Shown one piece after another: positions 51,893-61,424 of a DNA stretch of 64,000 bases. The DNA is taken from the NCBI GenBank assembly GCA_964610995.1, contig CAZSWF010000002.1, positions 6,338 to 70,337 of the forward strand, in the 5' to 3' direction. Under the pieces are notes generated by a model that had not been told where the DNA came from, searched no databases, and saw nothing but the letters and a program-made list of their open reading frames with translations. Every line of letters starts with the position of its first letter. Positions within the stretch are counted from its first letter, which is position 1. Both the position numbers and the translations under genes were made by a program. The stretch is from an uncultured Candidatus Saccharibacteria bacterium (GTDB taxonomy: Bacteria; Patescibacteriota; Minisyncoccia; Phycocordibacterales; UBA9973).

Positions 51893-52186
51893 CTACACTT
51901 TTGCTATTACTTCTTGTGCAAGCAATGCACGCTTTGCACGAGGACCGCCGCGGTTGTACTCTCCGACGCTTCCATCAGAACGAACCACGCGGTGACACGG
52001 CACAGTTGGATCGTAGTTACCTTTCATCACTGTCCCCACAGCACGAGCAGCGTTAGCATTCCCAGCTTTCTTTGCAACTTCTGCATAGGTCATCGTCTTG
52101 CCTTTTGGGATCTGACGCACAACATCACGCACCTTATCTGCAAATGATTTCACGTGCGCATTATTTGACGATCGGGTGTGGGACAT
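51893..52186 (-). CDS. MGMT-family protein (O6-alkylguanine-DNA alkyltransferase DNA-binding domain)
   Basis: TYAEVAKKAGNANAARAVGTVMKGN...PCHRVV contains the PCHRV active-site motif. Confidence 0.8.
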   Translation of the reverse strand: MSHTRSSNNAHVKSFADKVRDVVRQIPKGKTMTYAEVAKKAGNANAARAVGTVMKGNYDPTVPCHRVVRSDGSVGEYNRGGPRAKRALLAQEVIAKV

Positions 52187-52460
52187 TGAGCACTTCTTTG
52201 AAAAATGTCACGATCACAGTATTTTCACCTTCGGTGATGAAGTCGGTGTTGAAGGTACAGTTATAAGCGACAGTTTGGCGATACCCAAATGCAACTTTGG
52301 TAAAACTCAGGTCATCGATCGAAAGGTTGCAGCCTTCTTGGAGTGTGGACTGACTTTCGTACACTTTGTTGTAGATCAGCTGACGAGCATCTGCAGGCTC
52401 AAACCATGGACACCATGCAACAATAATAAGTCCTACAACTATAAGTGCGAAAAATGCTTT
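52161..52460 (-). CDS. hypothetical small membrane-anchored protein
   Basis: Probable start MKAFFALIVVGLIIV. About 100 aa. Confidence 0.35.
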   Translation of the reverse strand, partial: KAFFALIVVGLIIVAWCPWFEPADARQLIYNKVYESQSTLQEGCNLSIDDLSFTKVAFGYRQTVAYNCTFNTDFITEGENTVIVTFFKEVLNVPHPIVK

Positions 52461-52641
52461 CATATAAGTACTAGTATAGCGCACTAGTAGAAATGGCACC
52501 AAGTTTCGTGTGGACTCCAGTATGGTTTTTGTAAACCAGATAGCTAAGGAATTGGAGTATCTGGCTTGGGTACTAAAAGGAGATTATGAGAAAAGTGTCT
52601 AAATTACTGTCGGTACTGTCTTTAGTGTCTAGATATTAAAA

Positions 52642-52665
52642 AGCCCCTTCAAGAATGAGGGGGCT
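52642..52665 (-). terminator. rho-independent terminator
   Basis: AGCCCCTT-caagaatg-AGGGGGCT. On the minus strand it is followed by TTTTTAATAT, downstream of the 52689-54539 gene. Confidence 0.65.
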
Positions 52666-52688
52666 GTATAAAGAACTTCTTCTAATTA

Positions 52689-54539
52689 CTATTTACCAAA
52701 GTTGGTAATTCGACGTCCTAAGTTGTTTACTGGATTTTCAAGTATGGCAGGCTTTGCCCATACACCAGAAATCAATCCTGTATTTGCGGTCTTGGACTTC
52801 GTGATTCTTTGTTTTAGGAAAAATGGTTCAACCTCTACGTTGTAAAAACTAGCGGCCGCACTATCCATTTCGGAAAGCTTCCTATAAGCAAGAAGAACAT
52901 GTTTAGTGCTCCCGATGGAAATAGCTGACCGAAGCATTGCTGCTAATATCGCAAGAGATTTTATATTGCCCTGATCTAACCATTCACATAAAGATTTGTA
53001 TTCCCCATAGTGAAGCAGTTTTGCGGCCTTTCTCTCTTCTGCGATTCTTAATTTTTCAACCTCAGTTGTCGCTGTTTTAAAAGTTCCAAGTAGGTTAAGT
53101 TTTTTCTGTAAGAGACTAAGCCGATTCAAATCCTTTTCCTCTGTAGGTACAAATTCTGAATAGAACTCGAGTGATCTTACTGTCAATTCACATTCCTTTG
53201 TCTGTAGGGCTACTAAATCCTTTTGAATCTTTTCAACTGCCCGAAGAATGGTGTCGTGATACTCTAGAAAAAGTATCCTTTCTAGCACAACCTTAACAGC
53301 GTATTCATTTTTAGTTTTCATCGCACGACAAAGGAGACTGGAAAGGACGTTAGCAGATGTTGTTTTTGCAACACTGTGTTTAATCATTGCTTCTATCTCA
53401 GTATCGGAAGAAAAAGATCCTTGCTTGAATAAGCCATAAAGTACATCACGGTCGAAGGGTTTAATCGTATATGCCTCTTTACAGGACTTGATAAGGGCAG
53501 GATGCCGATAATCTATCGTAAGCGCCTTTCTACAATCCTCAAGCCTTTTTGCCAACCAGATCGGTCTGTCTTTAAACAGCATAATTTCAAGATTTGGAGG
53601 AACTTCAAAACCACTAATCGCGGCCATTCTATTGAATAGGACTTTTGAATTAACCTTTTGTACTAACCACCACAAAATGAGAGATTCTGTCTGAGAATTA
53701 TTTTTCCCTTGGCAATACAAGCACATTGGTACAAAAGTTGTTAAAGAGCCTCTCTCTACTAACCTCTGTACATCATTGGCTATAATTTTTTTATACCGCT
53801 TCTCGAATGTCTCAGCTGTATCAACAGCCCAGGCAACATCTTCCCGAACAAACGGTATTTGAAATATATCCTTTTGACCCTCATTTTCTAAAGAAGAAAA
53901 ACAGGTTGAAAATATAATTTCAGCTATTTCTCTTTCTCCTAGGTACAAGTAGTACCAGTAAAATGAGAGTAAAAGGTTTCTGCACCCGTATTCAAGGAGT
54001 TTTGATGTAAGGGCAACAAGACAATCGGTTCTCTTTTCATCTTTGGTTCTTAAACAAAAACGATACATTGCATCCCATGCTACCCACTGCCAGCTACTTT
54101 TGCGAGCTTTAACCGCAATTACTTTTTCAACAAATTGCAGTTGCTGGTCATTAATGGGCCACATTCTTTTATGAGCAAGAAGGAATACAATTGTTGATTC
54201 CACACCTTTGTCTAATACATATAGAGTGATCATATCTTCATAGGTGGAAAAGAAATAGGGTTCATTTTCAATTTTATTGAAGAAATCACTTTCTTTATAA
54301 GCATGAATTTCTTTAGCCCTTTTTGTATTTATCTTGCATCCTGTTAAATCTTCAATGAGGGATAAGCGCTCAGCCCCCATTAAATCACGGTGATAACACA
54401 AAACTATAAATGCTTCCGTGTTTTTACCTTCTTCGATAAGCGATTTTGCTTTGGAAATAATTCCTTGTTCATCCGATGTACCGATTTCTAAATCGGACAT
54501 CCTGTTGGATTGATTGGCGAAACGTGTCTTTTTCTCCAT
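52689..54539 (-). CDS. large hypothetical protein (616 aa), AT-rich island gene
   Basis: Long uninterrupted ORF of low GC, predicted helical, with no recognisable catalytic motif. It is the last gene of a three-gene minus-strand operon. Confidence 0.5.
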   Translation of the reverse strand: MEKKTRFANQSNRMSDLEIGTSDEQGIISKAKSLIEEGKNTEAFIVLCYHRDLMGAERLSLIEDLTGCKINTKRAKEIHAYKESDFFNKIENEPYFFSTYEDMITLYVLDKGVESTIVFLLAHKRMWPINDQQLQFVEKVIAVKARKSSWQWVAWDAMYRFCLRTKDEKRTDCLVALTSKLLEYGCRNLLLSFYWYYLYLGEREIAEIIFSTCFSSLENEGQKDIFQIPFVREDVAWAVDTAETFEKRYKKIIANDVQRLVERGSLTTFVPMCLYCQGKNNSQTESLILWWLVQKVNSKVLFNRMAAISGFEVPPNLEIMLFKDRPIWLAKRLEDCRKALTIDYRHPALIKSCKEAYTIKPFDRDVLYGLFKQGSFSSDTEIEAMIKHSVAKTTSANVLSSLLCRAMKTKNEYAVKVVLERILFLEYHDTILRAVEKIQKDLVALQTKECELTVRSLEFYSEFVPTEEKDLNRLSLLQKKLNLLGTFKTATTEVEKLRIAEERKAAKLLHYGEYKSLCEWLDQGNIKSLAILAAMLRSAISIGSTKHVLLAYRKLSEMDSAAASFYNVEVEPFFLKQRITKSKTANTGLISGVWAKPAILENPVNNLGRRITNFGK

Positions 54540-54617
54540 GTTTTTATTTTTTTGTAAGTGAACAATTTTATATCGACTTTATACTACATTGCATATTTAA
54601 TATGTCAATGTCATCAG

Positions 54618-55088
54618 TTACTGAACTTTGCTTCTAAACACTTCCAGGAGAAAAGGTATTTTATCTTTTAGAATGTTTATATTATTACCTATGTCGTTTA
54701 CCTTATCACTCATACCTGAAAGAATTGTAGTAGTTTCTTTTTGTTTTACTTCCAAGACTTCAATTTTATCCCCATGAGAATAGACTAAATAGCCCATCCA
54801 AACTAAAGCTGCGATTGCCGCCACAATAAGGCTAACAAAAATATTACTTAACAGATTTTCAAAACCAAATGCATCTCTTAGTCTCAAACGAAAAGGTTTC
54901 TTTGTCTTTCTACTTTTTTGAGGCTTTTTTTCCTCCTCAAAATTTGAAGAATCAGTTGTATCAACAGTATTAAATTTCTTTTCAGTTGTTTCTAAACCTG
55001 AAGATTTTAATAAAAAACGCTTATATGCATTTTTCTCATAAGGAGTTTTTCCTACATGTTCAGATCTAATGTATCTACTATTTTTCAT
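54618..55088 (-). CDS. hypothetical single-pass membrane protein
   Basis: 156 aa with a basic N-terminus (KPQKSRKTKKPFRLRLR), one TM segment (IFVSLIVAAIAALVWMGYLVY) and a coiled C-terminus. Confidence 0.45.
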   Translation of the reverse strand: MKNSRYIRSEHVGKTPYEKNAYKRFLLKSSGLETTEKKFNTVDTTDSSNFEEEKKPQKSRKTKKPFRLRLRDAFGFENLLSNIFVSLIVAAIAALVWMGYLVYSHGDKIEVLEVKQKETTTILSGMSDKVNDIGNNINILKDKIPFLLEVFRSKVQ

Positions 55089-55776
55089 TTTCGTTAAAAA
55101 TCCAAGGATAATACTTATTATCTAAGTATGAAATAGCATCTTTTATAAAAGCTTCTGTATCGCAGTCTCTTAGATCGTAGAAACTTGGATCATAGTAATA
55201 TTGGAAATCCAAATTTGCTTCAAACTTACCATCTTTTATTTCAGTAAAATTATAAATATAATTTTTGAAATCGTTTACATTTTTTCTATAAAGAGATTCT
55301 TTACTCTCTTCTTTTGATGAGAATGTTAAGTTTATGTTCTGAGCTTTATTTATTTTTGAGTTTGTAATTAATGGTATAACTGCTTTGAGTTTTTCTATAT
55401 TTGAAACTTCATGTCCAAAAATAACACCTATTCTGCTAATATTAACTAGCTCAAATTTTCTAAAAATGTGCTCTTTTAAATAAGGCAATACCTTATCGTT
55501 TAGGAATTTTATTTTTGTATCAAAATTACCTTCGACTTTCAATTTTATAATTAAATCATCTGTATTGATTCTAATATATTCATCTGTTTCAGTATTATAT
55601 AAGATTCTTTCTCGAAGATTGGTATCTCGAACCTCTGGGAACATTTCTGCTCCAAATGGCGACTCTTCGTCGTACAAAATATGGTCTATAATCCTTCCAG
55701 CCTCGTCTCTCAAACGAAAAGATCTCGAATGTCGTATACCTAGAATAACTGAAGTTATGTCCTTTTTTAGATTCAT
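55078..55776 (-). CDS. hypothetical protein (232 aa)
   Basis: AT-rich ORF whose stop overlaps the next gene's start by about 10 bp, with no motif I can assign. Confidence 0.45.
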   Translation of the reverse strand: MNLKKDITSVILGIRHSRSFRLRDEAGRIIDHILYDEESPFGAEMFPEVRDTNLRERILYNTETDEYIRINTDDLIIKLKVEGNFDTKIKFLNDKVLPYLKEHIFRKFELVNISRIGVIFGHEVSNIEKLKAVIPLITNSKINKAQNINLTFSSKEESKESLYRKNVNDFKNYIYNFTEIKDGKFEANLDFQYYYDPSFYDLRDCDTEAFIKDAISYLDNKYYPWIFNENEK

Positions 55777-56046
55777 AGTTAGAGCTTAATATATCATTAG
55801 TATCAAAAATGTCCATGGGGAAGCTTAAGTTGCAATGGTTCCAATTCCCCGAAGGCATTACGTTCGATGGAAAGGATTATGGAACCGTACAAACAGCAGG
55901 TGTTTTCAAGACAAAAGAGGCATTTCTGCCCCTTCAGTCTTCTACGGTGGACTTGGGAGTTCAATTTTGGAACAGATTTGCTGTGGAGTGTCAATATCTT
56001 GTCCATATTATGCGTGAATACAATGCTGACTTGAAAAGATAAAAAA

Positions 56047-56520
56047 CTACCTCCACTGCGTATCACTATTCTTTATGTCTCTCAAGGTCTTCCAGCTCAT
56101 CTCTTCAACACCGCCCGCACGGTCCACGAAAAAAATATAGAGGTTCAATTTATCCATCACATCAAATGGCATTTTTCTCAAGACCATCTTCTTAAATGAA
56201 ATTGGAAAAGCTACACCGTATTTATAGCCGTATTTGTACCCACGCTTGCCGTTGCGGTGCATTCTTGTAATGATTTGTCCTACGGCTGAATTGAAACAGC
56301 TACTCATACTACCAGCGGGACTTTTTACGATAATTGATGGGTCGCCCTTTGCCTCAATCAACCAATAGCGAGAAAAGTTATCGTTTCTGACTTTGATGTC
56401 TACACCCTGTTCCCAGAGTTCGGCATTTCGCAGTGAAGTACTCCATCCTTTTCTCTTCAAATACGCAACCACGTTTTTTTGCACAAAGCTCTCTGTAATT
56501 ATTTCTCGTGTAGCCTTCAT
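56047..56520 (-). CDS. putative PD-(D/E)xK nuclease-fold protein
   Basis: GVDIKV...YWLIEAKG has the spacing of a D...ExK restriction-endonuclease-like core. It is 17 bp downstream of the RT gene on the same strand. Confidence 0.4.
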   Translation of the reverse strand: MKATREIITESFVQKNVVAYLKRKGWSTSLRNAELWEQGVDIKVRNDNFSRYWLIEAKGDPSIIVKSPAGSMSSCFNSAVGQIITRMHRNGKRGYKYGYKYGVAFPISFKKMVLRKMPFDVMDKLNLYIFFVDRAGGVEEMSWKTLRDIKNSDTQWR

Positions 56521-56536: not shown

Positions 56537-57655
56537 TTAGGACATACTCTTCACCAGCTCTTTGACTTCGCTTGTGATTTTCTTGGCATTGCCATGACTT
56601 AATAATCCAAGATAGGACTGCACGGTCTCCTCTTTTGCACCCATCTCCGCGATACGCTTGTACATGCGACGCTTGGTCACGGTCCGCACCGCACGATGGT
56701 CTGGAAAGTGGACCCATCCAAGGAAATCAACGCCCGAGGCGAGCGTCTTTATGAAAACTTTATCTGGATGTAATAAAAGTTTTAACTTTTCTTTAAGAAA
56801 AATTGATATTTTCGGGAGAATACCCTCAAGTACCGCTTTGTCATCGGACAGGAATACGAAATCATCGGCATAGCGGATGTAGTGCTTCGCTTTGAGCGTA
56901 TGCTTCACGAACTGGTCAAACTCGTTCATATAGATATTGACCAAGAGTTGTGAGGTAAGGTTGCCAAGCGGCAGTCCTCTCCCTTTTTGAGTTGAATGAA
57001 AACTGCCAACAATTTCAGCCAAGAGTTCTACGATGTCCTTGTCTGCGATAGAACTTTTAATGATGTTCAACAGGATGTCGTGGTCCACCGATGCAAAGAA
57101 CTTCCGTATGTCGCATTTCAAAACCCAGACAGTGCGTGTGTCATTCTTTGAGACCTTGTAGGACAGAGTACGAAACCGCTGCATTGCCTTGTGGGTGCCT
57201 TTGTTTTGTCTGCAAGAAAATGAGTCAGCAATAAATGTGTGGTCAAAAAATGGATAGAGCTGACGATACAGTGCGTGGTGCAACAATCGGTCCGCAACGG
57301 ACGCCTTGTGAATGTTTCGCGGTTTCGGGTCAGAAATGTTGAACGCTTCGTACGATGAGTGTCGGTATGTTTTCGCTACAAGCGTGCGGTGCAGAGCGAT
57401 GACGTTGCCCATCAGATTTCTTTCAAATAGCAAAACATCTTTTCTTGATTTTTTACCCGACACAAACTCTTGCCACGCAAGGAGGAGGTTTTCGAGAGAA
57501 ATGATATGCTCGTAGCTATGAATAAACCGAGTCCGAGCAATACAATGACCATCACCCCCCCCCGACAATTTTGCCCGTGCTTCAAAAGCTGAAAACTGTC
57601 TATATTCATTGGTATGGATATTATCACGAACTCCCCAAGACACACCGCCACTCAC
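56537..57655 (-). CDS. diversity-generating retroelement reverse transcriptase
   Basis: RT motifs include IRYADDFVFL (YADD box). LPLGNLTSQLLVNIYMNEFD is the DGR-type [ILV]GxxxSQ motif, replacing the QGxxxSP of group II introns. A 9-nt G-run lies in the 5' region, and the start is uncertain. Confidence 0.85.
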   Translation of the reverse strand: MSGGVSWGVRDNIHTNEYRQFSAFEARAKLSGGGDGHCIARTRFIHSYEHIISLENLLLAWQEFVSGKKSRKDVLLFERNLMGNVIALHRTLVAKTYRHSSYEAFNISDPKPRNIHKASVADRLLHHALYRQLYPFFDHTFIADSFSCRQNKGTHKAMQRFRTLSYKVSKNDTRTVWVLKCDIRKFFASVDHDILLNIIKSSIADKDIVELLAEIVGSFHSTQKGRGLPLGNLTSQLLVNIYMNEFDQFVKHTLKAKHYIRYADDFVFLSDDKAVLEGILPKISIFLKEKLKLLLHPDKVFIKTLASGVDFLGWVHFPDHRAVRTVTKRRMYKRIAEMGAKEETVQSYLGLLSHGNAKKITSEVKELVKSMS

Positions 57656-57918
57656 TCGGAGTACGCATTGATACGCTGTTCATAGAAATAATGGAGTCAA
57701 TCGCCGTGGCAAGTTTTCTCGCTCGTATTGAAAAACAACCCTATGTACGGATTGCTATACGAAAAATTGATACGCTCAAAGTACTCATGATGGTGCTTTG
57801 GGAAACGAAGTCGCTCGATGACAAGAAGTACATCGCACTGTCGGTACAAATCGAAGAAATCGGGAAGATGCTCGGCGGCTGGAACGGGCAACTCACAAAA
57901 CAAAACTCTCCCAACTAA
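57571..57918 (+). CDS. DGR accessory variability determinant (Avd, four-helix-bundle protein)
   Basis: LPKTHRHSLGVRIDTLFIEIMESIAVASF...IALSVQIEEIGKMLGGW parallels Bordetella phage Avd (PRKHGVAREMF...AEVGRILGSWIA). It starts at TTG 57571 or a later ATG, on the strand opposite to the RT and TR. Confidence 0.65.
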   Translation: MPVLQKLKTVYIHWYGYYHELPKTHRHSLGVRIDTLFIEIMESIAVASFLARIEKQPYVRIAIRKIDTLKVLMMVLWETKSLDDKKYIALSVQIEEIGKMLGGWNGQLTKQNSPN

Positions 57919-57945
57919 TAAAAGTTGAGAGAGAAATGAAGAGAG

Positions 57946-58069
57946 TTGCCGAGAGAGCAGCAGGGTTGTTGCCATTGAAGTCATTGCTCAACCAGTTGTT
58001 GCTCCAGTTCCACTGACCATCGTTCCAATACAGGTAACGGACATAGAGGTTGTCGTCAGAGTTGCGGTT
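57946..58069 (-). repeat. DGR template repeat (TR)
   Basis: 124-bp repeat. Versus the copy at 58434-58557, every one of the 19 mismatches falls where this copy has A on the minus strand, so this is the adenine-bearing template. The first 20 bp are identical in both copies (IMH-like GC-rich end). Confidence 0.85.
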
Positions 58070-58428
58070 ATGTATGGCGTGCCATCCATTCCACCATCCT
58101 TTGAATACTCTCGGGATTGTATCGTATCTGTGATAGTAATCACCCAGCACGTCATACCAAGTATCTTCAATTTTTTGAAGTTTCTACATACACCACCCTA
58201 TCTGAAGCCGTGACCGCAGATATTCTCGATGTATGGATACTAGCTTCGGCAGTCGGAAGCCGTAACCGCCGTCATATTCGCCAGAAGCCGTTCTCATGGT
58301 ATCACAAAAAAATAACCCCTATATGAAAAATATAGGGGTGAAGATTTGTAAAACCTTCAAAACTTTTTTATCGCGAACAAAGGACAAAGGGTCACAGCTC
58401 ATAGAGCACAGTGTTCGAGGGTATAGTA

Positions 58429-59019
58429 CTAACTTGCCGAGAGAGCAGCAGGGTAGTGGCCATAGAAGGCATAGCTCAACCAGCGGTTGCTCCAGAGCCA
58501 CTGACCACCGTCCCAATACAGGCAACGGACACAGAGGCGGCCGTCAGAGTCGCGGTAGATGGTCCCCCAGAAGAAAATATATTTTCCTTTCCATTCTTCA
58601 GGAATGGCTTTGGGGTTCGCCAATAGGTAGTCCAATACATTTGCGTTCAGTACTTTCTTGCCTTTTAATTCTTCACGCAGTTTGTTGCCTTCGATGCTAC
58701 CGTTCTTCTGTTTCTTGGAGAGATAGAGTTCAACTTTTGAAGCGTCAAACTTAATGTTGCCGTTCTTTTGGTGTTCCTCTACTTTCCAACAACTTGGAAT
58801 GAATGGTGCTGCATCGCAGTCAATAACGTGTTCAATGCCTTTTATTTCGTGGGTGCCGCGTAGCACACCGAGGACCAATTTCATCAGATTTTCATCTTTT
58901 GAAAAATCGTCCATGTTTTTTGGTTCCCAGCCTACTTTTGCGGCTGAAAGGGTAACTTCCCCCATGAGGGTACAGCTAAACTCATTTGATTTTGCCATTG
59001 TTTTAGGTTTGTGACACAT
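58429..59019 (-). CDS. DGR target protein with C-terminal variable (C-type-lectin-like) region
   Basis: 196-aa ORF whose last roughly 40 codons are the VR, with no obvious signal peptide. The start may be the internal MAKSNEF. Confidence 0.75.
   Translation of the reverse strand: MCHKPKTMAKSNEFSCTLMGEVTLSAAKVGWEPKNMDDFSKDENLMKLVLGVLRGTHEIKGIEHVIDCDAAPFIPSCWKVEEHQKNGNIKFDASKVELYLSKKQKNGSIEGNKLREELKGKKVLNANVLDYLLANPKAIPEEWKGKYIFFWGTIYRDSDGRLCVRCLYWDGGQWLWSNRWLSYAFYGHYPAALSAS
58434..58557 (-). repeat. DGR variable repeat (VR) at the 3' end of the target gene
   Basis: This is the counterpart of the TR. TR Asn/Tyr/Asp codons (AAC, TAC, GAC) correspond to R/C/L/Y/H/G/A codons here: TR-encoded NLYVRYLYWNDGQWNWSNNWLSNDFNGNNPAALSA becomes RLCVRCLYWDGGQWLWSNRWLSYAFYGHYPAALSA. 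It ends 2 nt before the stop codon. Confidence 0.85.
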
Positions 59020-59199
59020 CCGCTTTTTGCGGACTCATCGGTGAAAAAATGTATTAAAGAACTGATAGTATTATAGCACCATTTCGTTATATAGTCAATA
59101 AACCCTTATTCCCCTATGCCGAGAGCAAAAAGCCGCGTGTAGCACCGCAGCTCTCCGCTGATAACCGTATTCTTTTGTTGAGGTTGAGATAGTAAAATC

Positions 59200-60546
59200 C
59201 TAGAAATTAGTAAGTAGTGATAAAATCCTTTTCTGTACCTCACTACTTGGAATGGTGGACTCATGGTAACAGTCGTCCTTTTCCGAGAACACAACAAAGT
59301 CCGTACCATCGAATGTATTGATTGGTATCCAAAAAAACCTATCAACAGGGTCGTGACGGTCAATGGCGACACTCACACCAAGAATATAGTCATAATTTTT
59401 CATGTACCCTTTGATGGTGAAGCACCAGTTTGCAACGCCGTCCACTGTGAAGCGTGCCCCAATCGCCATCGGCAGTTTCCTGACTGCCATGTCAGCGTCG
59501 TCAATTTCCATGCCGTTACTCATAAGAAGAGCAGAGATTTCCGTCTGAAGACCACGTCTTGCTTTTCGCACAGCGTATGCACCCTTTTGCCATTTGGTGG
59601 GCATGAGCCAATACAAGCGGTCTTGGGCAGCGTTGAACATCTCCGAAGAAACGATACCTTCAAATGCGTTCGGTTGGATGACCCACTCACTTCGCGGATT
59701 GCGACGGTGCTTCTGTTTCAATCGACCCCATGTCTTGTTGTAGATACGGGTACCAGTGTATATCTCGTTCGTGAGGACATGGAGTACACCAATAGACTTC
59801 CATGTTTTGCCCTGTGCAGTGAGAACGCCCCGTGCGTTCAGTATCTCTGCGATTGTCTGGGGTGACTCCCATTTCTCCACTAACAGCTCGTACATTTCTT
59901 TGACTACCTCACTCGTCCCGTCATCGGCAGGGGCGAAGGTGACACGCTCATTTGAGATTGATTTCCACTCTCCCTTTTTGAGCTTTCGCAACGGCTTCTT
60001 GTCTACGTCGAGGAGCATACGTGTCATGCCAAACGGAGGTTGACCTCCTGCTGAAAACCCTTGCTCGGATACTTTGACACAGCCATGGAACACCTTGCCA
60101 CTCAACTGACGAGAGTATTCAGCAGCCATATAGCGACCAATGGATGTCTGAAGTGTAGAAATGAGCTGTTCATCTTCTTTGGGAAATCCCTGCGAGACGT
60201 ACACGACTTTCTTCCCATTCTGCTTACAAGTGTATTCGTAGTGAGCAGCCTCGTTCTGGTCCTGAAATCGTCCCCAACGGGATACATCGTAGACAAAGAC
60301 ATAATCGAAGGCAGGAGCAAAAGGGTTCTTAATCCAATCATCAAACAGACGTTGAAAAGCAGGTCGGTCCGCCGATAACCCACTTTCTCCCTCATCAGCT
60401 TCCTCATGGATGATTTCGATGTTATGCGTCTTTGCAAATGCTTGCGTATGTCCCTGCTGAATAGCAACCGAGTTCTCTTGCTTGTCCTTTGCGGAGTGAC
60501 GATAGTACGCCACGCCTGTCTTGCGTATCGGTTCTGATATAGACAT
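59200..60546 (-). mobile_element. large serine recombinase (integrase)
   Basis: The N-terminal resolvase catalytic domain (AYYRHSAKDKQ with the catalytic Ser, FDYVFVYDVSRWGR), a recombinase domain and a Cys/His-containing C-terminal region are typical of large serine integrases. Confidence 0.8.
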
Positions 60547-60548
60547 GG

Positions 60549-61424
60549 CTAGACAATTTTAATCGTCTTTCTAATAAGAGCTTGAAGTTGAACGAGAGAT
60601 GCTTTTTCGTTCTTCGTGAAAGATGTGCCATTCTCTTTCTTTTTCGTAATCTTCTTGATGAGGTCGCCGCACATGAGGGCAAATCCCGTCTGGCGTGTCC
60701 GTAGCTCAAGCTCATTTGCAGTCATGGGTATTTTTATCAAGAACTCATGGAGCTCGTCCTCATTGATTGTCGCCTGCATAAATACCTTACCAATCTTTCG
60801 TATGTCGAGTGACTTGGTGATGACCTTTTTCTCAATTTTTGCAAATATAATCGAAATAATATCGTCGACCTCGAGTTTTTTGATTTTCTGAAGTTTCTTA
60901 AACAGGTTGAGCATTGCCATACGAACACTCCTTGGTACGTCGTAACGCTCCATCATTGTCAAGTTCGATATTCTTTGTTTTCGCATCTGCATGGCAAGCT
61001 GGACCGATGACCTACTCATACCGAGATAATCTGCAAGCTCGTGATTACTCTTGAACCCATAGGAGTACTTGATACGCTCCAGAGCTTCAGATTTTTCTAA
61101 CGGGTTCCATGCACGACGATTATTCTGCATTTCATATCGTCGTGTCTCAAACTCACCGTCCGTCATCTTGGGGTAGATACGACACGGCACATGTTTCATT
61201 CCTAACTTCTGGGCACAAATAAATCGACGATGACCGTCGATTATGATGTAACGTTTTTCCGCTATCTGACTTACTTTGATTGGCTCTTCAATGCCATAGT
61301 TTTTAATCGACAGTTTGAGCTTGTTCTTCTCGGCTTCGACTCCGAAGTCTTGTCTCGGTTGATTTTGGTCTCGCTGAACTTGTCCAATAGGTAACTCTGC
61401 AAATATGAACTTTGGTTTTAGCAT
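60549..61424 (-). CDS. ParB/Srx-like nuclease domain protein
   Basis: IGQVQRDQNQPRQDF...LSIKNYGIEEPIKV...IIIDGHRRFICAQKLG is the ParB N-terminal domain signature. It lies 3 bp upstream of the serine recombinase. Confidence 0.7.
   Translation of the reverse strand: MLKPKFIFAELPIGQVQRDQNQPRQDFGVEAEKNKLKLSIKNYGIEEPIKVSQIAEKRYIIIDGHRRFICAQKLGMKHVPCRIYPKMTDGEFETRRYEMQNNRRAWNPLEKSEALERIKYSYGFKSNHELADYLGMSRSSVQLAMQMRKQRISNLTMMERYDVPRSVRMAMLNLFKKLQKIKKLEVDDIISIIFAKIEKKVITKSLDIRKIGKVFMQATINEDELHEFLIKIPMTANELELRTRQTGFALMCGDLIKKITKKKENGTSFTKNEKASLVQLQALIRKTIKIV

Follow-up and report, generated by a model that had tools for sequence, protein, structure and literature searches.

Organization of the locus

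The window, i.e. the whole stretch of 64,000 nucleotides that was analysed, contains a genuine and complete diversity-generating retroelement (DGR) in a Patescibacteria (CPR) chromosome. As claimed in a first-pass annotation of this DNA, reverse transcriptase (RT), Avd, template repeat (TR), variable repeat (VR) and target gene are all present, and the adenine signature is genuine (Table 1).

The coordinates correspond to architecture B3 as defined in PMC5758913, i.e. TR-(avd)-RT with avd in reverse orientation. In that survey, 90% of CPR DGRs were of this type (Wu et al. 2018, PMC5758913). The complete arrangement of target/VR, TR, reversed avd and RT was also found in 42 other species genomes, and avd has the same orientation in all related loci that possess it. 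The B3 CPR DGRs described by Wu et al. 2018 share with our locus the order, the reversed avd, the Patescibacteria host and a VR right at the C-terminal end of a small protein without recognisable domains, and there is no difference in layout. Judged from the sequence, a functional DGR with the standard CPR/Patescibacteria layout is highly probable. Earlier the cassette had been considered out of the ordinary. Since the layout is standard for CPR and the short target without signal peptide comes from a very large family, it is instead an ordinary example of the commonest CPR type and one more in an abundant lineage.

A DGR clade restricted to CPR has targets without recognisable domains (PMC8144416). 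This clade 2 of Roux et al. 2021 (PMC8144416; cellular, Patescibacteria-restricted) is likewise chromosomal and CPR-hosted, with targets lacking transmembrane or known domains, and host and target type suggest that our cassette is a member. A phage origin is unlikely because the window carries mraY-like, ftsW, PBP and gatB genes and members of the family hardly occur on viral contigs (4 loci in IMG/VR vs 340 in species genomes). Comparison of the related loci revealed no conserved neighbour genes besides target, avd and RT, and a PADLOC scan of the neighbour genes gave no defence-system match. Neither a second VR nor a target paralogue was found within the 64-kb window.

Table 1. Features of the DGR cassette (positions within the window)
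Feature	Position	Strand	Remarks
DGR reverse transcriptase	56537..57541	-	334 aa from the most likely start ATT 57541; RVT_1 E 1.2e-24; bRT 8ub7 E 6.9e-40
G9 homopolymer	57555..57563	-	in the 29-bp gap between avd start and RT start
avd (accessory variability determinant)	57571..57918	+	115 aa; opposite to RT, TR and VR
Stem-loop directly 3' of TR, followed by U-run	57897..57933	-	terminator-like; covariation in 5/7 pairs
Long-range helix, 3' strand (TCTTCATTT)	57934..57942	-	predicted to pair with 58164-58172; loop encloses P4-P6 and TR
Template repeat (TR)	57946..58069	-	20 adenine-containing codons, none mutable to stop; identical in L081
Structured 5' domain of DGR RNA (predicted)	58070..58290	-	P1 58253-58272; P2/P3 58187-58235; long-range strand 58164-58172; P4-P6 58072-58157
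Putative extended -10 promoter (TGaTACCAT) of TR-containing RNA	58296..58304	-	motif TGnTAnAAT conserved there (43 loci)
Intrinsic terminator of target gene (predicted)	58305..58339	-	10-pair stem and T-run; in relatives GC hairpin and T-run at the same place
Post-stop stretch with CTTNG heptamer repeats in relatives	58372..58428	-	copy in the window degenerate; two clear CTTTG units at 58378-58391
Target (variable protein) gene	58429..59019	-	ORF of 196 aa; helical N-terminus, C-terminal alpha/beta domain ending in VR (predicted)
IMH-like 3' segment of VR	58434..58454	-	identical to TR 3' end (CCCTGCTGCTCTCTCGGCAA plus one base)
Variable repeat (VR)	58434..58557	-	18 mismatches to TR, all at TR adenines; mutagenised part about 58455-58551
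Putative sigma-70-like promoter, probably of target gene	59070..59098	-	TTGACT-17-TATAAT with upstream TG; 11/12 matches in consensus scan

Template and variable repeats

The two 124-bp copies had been placed correctly at 57946-58069 and 58434-58557. Their minus-strand sequences show 18 mismatches, and in 18/18 cases the RT-proximal copy has an A (8 A>G, 5 A>T and 5 A>C from TR to VR). Hence the restriction to minus-strand adenines stands, while the number of mismatches had to be corrected from 19 to 18; mismatches at non-A template positions were looked for in the alignment and amounted to 0/18. As the TR has 34 A in 124 nt, the hypergeometric probability of this distribution is 1.1e-12. In the 42 other loci, 617 of the 659 TR/VR mismatches (93.6%) are located at TR adenines, compared to an A content of 25.9%.

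These values bear on an ordinary tandem duplication of a gene 3' end with normal divergence, near which an unrelated RT (group II intron, retron, defence) would lie by chance. The region upstream of the TR indeed translates weakly like target residues 136-155, and this remaining resemblance means that the TR did originate in a duplicated gene end. However, normal divergence is contradicted by 18/18 differences at a single kind of base in a single copy (P 1e-12) and by the same adenine bias in 42 other loci, and a chance neighbourhood by an RT closest to bRT instead of intron or retron RTs, by the presence of an Avd homologue and by an Rfam scan without any match to group II intron or retron RNA. 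An ordinary duplication is thus extremely improbable and effectively already refuted.

The copies had further been described as starting with 20 identical bases. They are identical there, but over 21 nt (58434-58454 / 57946-57966). This GC-rich segment with divergent flanks is the plus-strand start, i.e. the 3' end of the repeat on the minus strand, and shows no A-site change in the window or in the related locus L081. By analogy to BPP-1, it may have an IMH role. Upstream of it there are 29 TR-adenine positions. The first mismatch, 58557 (A/T), is situated at the edge of the homology and probably outside the mutagenised part because a close relative has the same T.

The VR lies inside the protein-coding target at its 3' end and is separated from the stop codon by 2 nt. 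AAC or AAT make up 11 of the 20 variable codons, and the changes of Asn, Tyr and Asp codons proposed in the first-pass annotation were confirmed, with Asn replaced by Y, D, R, L or H, Tyr by C, and Asp by G or A.

Reverse transcriptase and Avd

The best solved relative of the RT is bRT of the Bordetella phage DGR (8ub7), to which it can be aligned nearly end to end; the match to group II intron RTs is weaker (E 5.9e-22). Both the LGNLTSQ motif and the YADD box reported earlier for the adjacent RT are present and align with IGSLTSQ and YMDD of bRT, respectively. Most likely the RT starts at ATT 57541 and not at GTG 57655, the mechanical extent of the ORF, which we have replaced. With this start, RT residue 10 is aligned to bRT residue 9. 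The position 13 nt past the G tract is occupied by ATG in most relatives and by ATT in the window and in L081. ATT is a known, though weak, bacterial start codon. Since it stands where relatives have ATG, RT expression may be weak.

Avd is an accessory protein of most, not all, DGRs. By its profile matches the 115-aa ORF is an Avd homologue, though with scores just below both curated cut-offs (NCBIfam DivGenRetAVD: E 1.6e-17, 63.7 bits, cut-off 80; Pfam bAvd: E 9.6e-10, 39.4 bits, cut-off 40). Its presence in the cassette had been recognized before; its strand is corrected here to plus, opposite to RT, TR and VR.

Signs of recent activity

The closely related locus L081, originating from a different metagenome, has a TR identical to that of the window (124/124) and flanking genes 87-95% identical. 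Its VR differs from the VR of the window at 17 positions, 17/17 at TR adenines. The identical TR together with adenine-only VR differences indicates recent diversification. VR variation restricted to TR-adenine positions, which had been suggested as a check, is thereby observed between loci. Two Logan assemblies of the same organism show no difference from the window, not even in the VR.

This identity would also fit a recently inactivated relic with past TR/VR activity, in which the RT is no longer translated from its ATT and the VR is now fixed. The replacement of the ATG present in most relatives and the many target homologues without a cassette point in the same direction. Against this, the diverged L081 keeps ATT despite differing neighbour codons and G-tract length, and, although the TRs are identical, the two VRs differ at 17 adenine sites. 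ATT can moreover serve as a start, as mentioned above; the RT ORF is uninterrupted, has all motifs and aligns end to end with bRT, and TR, RNA helices and avd are intact as well. We therefore consider a relic improbable. As far as can be judged from sequence, the cassette is probably active, the part that it hypermutates being the tip of a small soluble protein. L081 represents a sister locus pointing to recent diversification, and the window provides a clean, compact reference with the components mapped to the base.

The target protein

The target of 196 aa reported earlier is valid as a mechanical ORF, but the real start is probably Met8 at 58998 (189 aa), a Met common to the homologues. The described lack of a signal peptide agrees with the absence of a hydrophobic N-terminus. 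At least 1,801 homologues were found, the best 120 of them without Pfam annotation, and the very large family comprises about 4,200 clusters at 50% identity. In the alignment the core is conserved and the last ~40 aa are hypervariable. For about 35 homologues there is no DGR within 6 kb, which means that the protein can be retained where a cassette is missing nearby.

Sequence and profile searches gave no match to PDB chains, and there was none in Pfam, NCBIfam and PADLOC. An AF2 model was obtained with a pLDDT of 90.5; Foldseek detected nothing significant for it in the PDB, and it only weakly resembles C-type-lectin folds, the closest known kind being DGR targets with this fold (Mtd 1yu0, TvpA 2y3c) and FGE-like domains. 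The first-pass annotation had proposed to check the C-terminus for a C-type-lectin/FGE fold, a check that yielded a confident model and a weak likeness only. The modelled variable domain may be a small, soluble C-type-lectin-like binding domain. The CPR VR classes UVR1-6 of Wu et al. 2018 (PMC5758913) are without fold assignment. With this confident model for the family, our results bear on the use of hypervariable, intracellular-looking proteins without secretion signals in CPR.

A conserved RNA structure around the template repeat

A putative extended -10 promoter, which we infer to be that of a TR-containing RNA, is followed by a structured 5' domain of roughly 220 nt (Table 1). RNAalifold and pair counts showed 95.3% of the cells in this domain to be paired, compared to 39-53% in slid controls, with compensatory changes at 43/55 pairs. 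The long-range helix was paired in 90.7% and showed compensatory changes in 6/9 pairs, with 23 compensated cells vs 3-9 in slid controls. A gap of 3 nt separates the end of P4 from the TR, and another 3 nt lie between the TR and the start of the long-range helix. The 3' stem-loop overlaps the avd stop codon on the opposite strand; besides this stem-loop, no further RNA structure was supported in the antisense-avd stretch.

The covariance model of this element (R1) had a single match in the window (E 3.5e-24) and also matched held-out DGR loci. Among 54 sources searched, the element was detected beside TRs only. An Rfam scan at gathering scores yielded tRNAs only, leaving the DGR RNA unmatched, and the sole hit among the Rfam motifs RT-1 to RT-19 was RT-6 with 20 bits (cut-off 46.7), located on the other strand at the terminator.

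Several further candidates were rejected. A protein-coding leader was dismissed because no frame is open in more than 4/42 loci and the length differences are not multiples of 3. Pairing of GGCAAC at the TR 3' end with a downstream AGTTGCC, and of TGGAATGG just upstream of the TR with CCGTTCCA, is not kept by the other loci in alignment A3. For a pairing between leader and TR interior predicted by RNAalifold (A3 columns 117-125 with 504-511), a compensatory change occurred in one sequence and one pair.

Alternatively, the conserved RNA between VR and TR might be an independent regulatory RNA or 5' leader, e.g. riboswitch-like and controlling transcription of TR/RT, with the 3' stem-loop as a mere terminator. 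Its own promoter would suit such a role, stem-loop and U-run fit an intrinsic terminator, and the link of the helices to cDNA synthesis is drawn by analogy. On the other hand, P4 and long-range helix approach the TR to 3 nt from either side, the element was seen nowhere but beside TRs, and in BPP-1 the RNA on both TR sides is essential, forming a duplex across the TR and an Avd-binding stem-loop right after it (10.1101/2023.10.23.563531). An independent RNA is thus unlikely, though it deserves more weight than a relic.

Comparison with the Bordetella phage BPP-1 DGR

Our cassette resembles that of BPP-1 (mtd-avd-TR-brt; Handa et al., 10.1101/2023.10.23.563531) in an RT homologous end to end, Avd, adenine mutagenesis, the IMH-like 3' identity, a stem-loop that immediately follows the TR and a duplex between the two flanks of the TR, here predicted from covariation. 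In contrast to BPP-1, avd is inverted and separates TR from RT; as a result, the RNA following the TR on its 3' side runs antisense to avd. In BPP-1 the avd coding sequence supplies the upstream strand of the duplex, but here this strand is situated about 95 nt before the TR in a structured domain with its own putative promoter. Furthermore, the BPP-1 target is a phage tail fibre, whereas the present one is small and cytoplasmic-looking.

Our locus also differs from BPP-1 in the lack of a cruciform after the VR. In 36 loci, RNAalifold gave no consensus GC hairpin or cruciform within ~140 nt (from 30 nt ahead of the stop codon to about 110 nt beyond it). A GC-rich inverted repeat downstream of the IMH is a minority feature present in 34% of DGRs (Wu et al., PMC5758913).

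G tract, heptamer repeats and a possible CPR-type design

A tract of G7-G14 occurs at the junction of avd and RT starts in 31/33 related loci, and the window has no G/C run of at least 7 besides G9. The tract might pair with an invariant CCAnCCnCC, both sides being without variation among the loci. Among the 12 best hits of a targeted literature search none tied DGRs to G tracts, an earlier description being possible. Downstream of the VR, CTTNG occurs 3.7 times per 70 nt in 43 DGR loci vs 0.49 in shuffles, with a modal spacing of 7-8 nt.

Tentatively, and with somewhat less than even probability, we suggest that DGRs of the CPR type (B3) use a template RNA design of their own: an RNA of about 390 nt transcribed from a separate promoter, with the roughly 220-nt 5' domain and the long-range helix clamping the TR on both sides, together with the hypermutable G7-G14 tract and the CTTNG heptamers. 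RNA fold, G tract and heptamers are neither in Rfam nor in the literature examined, including Wu et al. 2018 (PMC5758913), although they may have been described before. If they are required, they would define cDNA start and stop, expression control and target-site recognition in the most abundant cellular DGR lineage. In any case they represent testable cis-elements for a DGR class that was never reconstituted.

Proposed mechanism

The target gene would be transcribed from its own promoter to its own terminator, and the extended -10 promoter would give rise to a separate RNA of ~390 nt comprising the P1-P6 domain, the TR, the long-range helix and the 3' stem-loop with U-run. Its predicted start is near 58289, and it would stop near 57897 or read through into RT. 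RT and Avd, expressed from back-to-back divergent genes, would bind the TR RNA and reverse-transcribe the TR with misincorporation opposite adenines. The roles of RNA helices, G tract and heptamers are analogies. P4 at the 5' edge of the TR probably limits cDNA extension, and long-range helix and 3' stem-loop are probably the counterparts of the stop duplex and the Avd-binding stem-loop, respectively, in the Bordetella phage RNP. The cDNA would then replace the VR, anchored by the 21-nt IMH-like identity. Thereby up to 20 codons could be recoded to about 10^17.8 protein variants with 0 stops, the variable residues being located in the model on a beta-hairpin and the C-terminal strand.

A standard CPR retroelement

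The window carries a diversity-generating retroelement (DGR), and the first-pass annotation, which had read it as one, was right in substance: adenine signature, reverse transcriptase (RT), accessory variability determinant (Avd) and a target with variable repeat (VR) are all present (see table). The RT-proximal copy, the template repeat (TR), aligns with the VR without gaps over 124 nt. All mismatches fall on A of the TR (8 A>G, 5 A>T, 5 A>C; P = 1.1e-12, the TR having 34 A). The annotated pair and its restriction to adenines were reproduced, with 18 mismatches instead of the 19 reported, and the identical end common to both copies comprises their final 21 nt at the 3' side rather than 20. 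Immediately past it the sequences diverge (GTTAG... after the VR, CTCTCTTCA... after the TR), and the homology ends upstream of 58557/58069. Twenty TR codons bear adenine, from none of which a stop codon can be reached, and the diversification space amounts to about 10^17.8 proteins.

Compared with solved structures, the RT matches the Bordetella phage BPP-1 enzyme bRT (8ub7) with an E value of 6.9e-40 (residues 10 to 313) and group II intron RTs with 5.9e-22, its LGNLTSQ aligning with IGSLTSQ of bRT. Avd scores slightly under the curated cut-off with both models (NCBIfam, E 1.6e-17; Pfam bAvd, E 9.6e-10). [quoted passage not shown] A cellular DGR clade limited to Patescibacteria, with targets lacking transmembrane or known domains, was described by Roux et al. 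(PMC8144416). As a standard CPR DGR, it will not surprise specialists; the part deserving follow-up is the set of conserved cis-elements revealed by comparison.

Features of the retroelement in the window
Feature	Position	Strand	Remarks
Target ORF	58429-59019	-	196 aa; stop codon 2 nt past VR end
VR	58434-58557	-	
Heptamer stretch	58372-58428	-	window copy degenerate
Extended -10 promoter TGnTAnAAT	58296-58304	-	directly past target terminator; 43-locus alignment
Structured RNA domain, ~220 nt	58070-58290	-	covariation; abuts TR; own extended -10 promoter
P1	58253-58272	-	43-locus alignment
P2/P3	58187-58235	-	43-locus alignment
P4-P6	58072-58157	-	43-locus alignment; P4 ends 3 nt before TR
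TR	57946-58069	-	
Long-range helix	AAATGAAGA 58164-58172 + TCTTCATTT 57934-57942	-	3' strand begins 3 nt past TR
Stem-loop + U-run	57897-57933	-	covaries; stacked on long-range helix; overlaps avd stop codon
avd	57571-57918	+	115-aa ORF; opposite strand to all other parts
G9 homopolymer	57555-57563	-	sole G/C run of at least 7 in the 64-kb window
RT, mechanical ORF	56537-57655	-	RVT_1 match

Signs of recent diversification

A homologue sharing 89% identity with the target protein led to the locus of a close relative, L081, from a different metagenome. Its flanking genes share 87-95% DNA identity with the window and its TR is the same (124/124). The VRs differ at 17 positions, all 17 at TR adenines. 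The VR heterogeneity check proposed in the first-pass annotation is thereby borne out in a natural form. Judged from these sequences, the pattern argues for diversification since the separation of the two lineages.

Structured RNA around the template

The VR-to-TR spacer, a feature beyond the first-pass annotation, is conserved in its DNA sequence among distant CPR lineages. In an alignment of 43 loci, the RNA leader encoded there showed compensatory changes in 43 of 55 proposed pairs, and 95.3% of cells in its helices (P1-P6) were paired compared to 39-53% with slid partners; no shuffle matched the observed values. The long-range helix bridging the TR is paired in 90.7%, with compensation in 6 of 9 pairs. 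A coding function of the leader was considered and rejected; it is non-coding. Rfam gave no match to the leader RNA.

A covariance model of P4-P6 has one match in the window and also recognizes DGR loci outside its training set. Among loci scored as TR-less it matches two only (L011:1200-1329 and L080:191-299). In L080 the match precedes the target, so that this locus may be arranged differently or have a second cassette.

In the Bordetella element, RNA flanking the TR on each side is essential, an Avd-binding stem-loop directly follows the TR, and upstream and downstream sequences form a duplex that halts polymerisation (10.1101/2023.10.23.563531). The same study described comparable elements for other DGRs, CPR ones among them, on the basis of just 40 nt of upstream and 100 nt of downstream sequence. 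The likeness in logic to the window RNA is clear; a helix-by-helix equivalence would be drawn by analogy.

The avd/RT junction

The avd and RT genes start back to back (divergently), separated by 29 bp. Of 33 related loci, 31 carry a tract of G7-G14 within a few bases of the avd start, on its outer side, and the tract is usually followed after 13 nt by an in-frame ATG. The tract is non-coding, since its lengths are not multiples of three. At the expected RT start (57539-57541) the window has ATT, as does L081 after its G11. The ATG position in relatives and the non-coding tract point to ATT 57541 as the most likely RT start, which would put the RT N-terminus within one residue of that of bRT. 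The length predicted by gene callers for this RT, or for copies at least 90% identical (one of them from L081), varied: 372, 312 and 291 aa.

Possible roles of the tract are ribosome binding, switching of expression by slippage, and pairing with RNA. An invariant CCAnCCnCC at 57880-57888, antisense of Avd GGW codons, might base-pair with the tract, which lies about 320 nt further downstream; neither partner varies, and covariation gives no readout.

Distribution of the target family

Scanning one genome per species revealed 340 loci with target relatives, nearly all in Patescibacteria MAGs; from viral contigs the family is nearly missing (4 loci). It comprises 4,196 clusters at 50% identity. 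The conserved module is the C-terminal ~140 aa, the N-terminal ~50 aa differing from member to member. Some members, e.g. P0248 (481 aa), P0249 (804 aa) and P0054 (341 aa), contain 2-4 tandem VR-bearing domains of this ~140-aa length. Tandem copies and varying N-termini suggest a modular binding domain.

A TR was present in 42 of the 80 loci fetched for comparison, its start being offset from that of the VR by 378-1374 nt (median 468 nt). TR adenines take 617 of 659 mismatches (93.6%) there, at an A content of 25.9%. Reversed avd, then RT, is found at every related locus whose contig extends far enough. In about 35 of the 80 loci the target stands alone, flanks of up to 6 kb containing neither TR nor avd, RT or leader RNA (L001, L010, L012, L014-L016 and about 30 others); such targets might be fixed, or else diversified in trans. 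At L009, L025 and L059, two or three target paralogues lie beside a single cassette.

Downstream of the VR, no conserved hairpin was found at related loci. What relatives have there instead is a series of tandem CTTNG heptamers, at a density of 3.7 per 70 nt vs 0.49 in shuffles (about 7.6-fold). These follow the target stop codon in loci L005-L077 and also many target homologues without a local DGR. A role in target-site recognition would be a guess.

Genomic surroundings

The window is chromosomal and carries mraY-like, ftsW, two PBP and gatB genes; its GatB is nearest to Patescibacteria/Paceibacterota proteins. No neighbour gene co-travels with the cassette at the related loci compared. Positions 52000-56000 have a GC content of 0.32-0.40 vs ~0.46 and three ORFs (616, 156 and 232 aa), which gave no Pfam, NCBIfam or PADLOC match, nor did a 157-aa ORF (56047-56520) directly after the RT. 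The interval 59200-61424, which separates the target from a gene for a ResIII-type helicase, contains genes for a large serine recombinase and a ParB-like/HTH protein. L081 has two small ORFs in their stead, suggesting a small indel adjoining the cassette.
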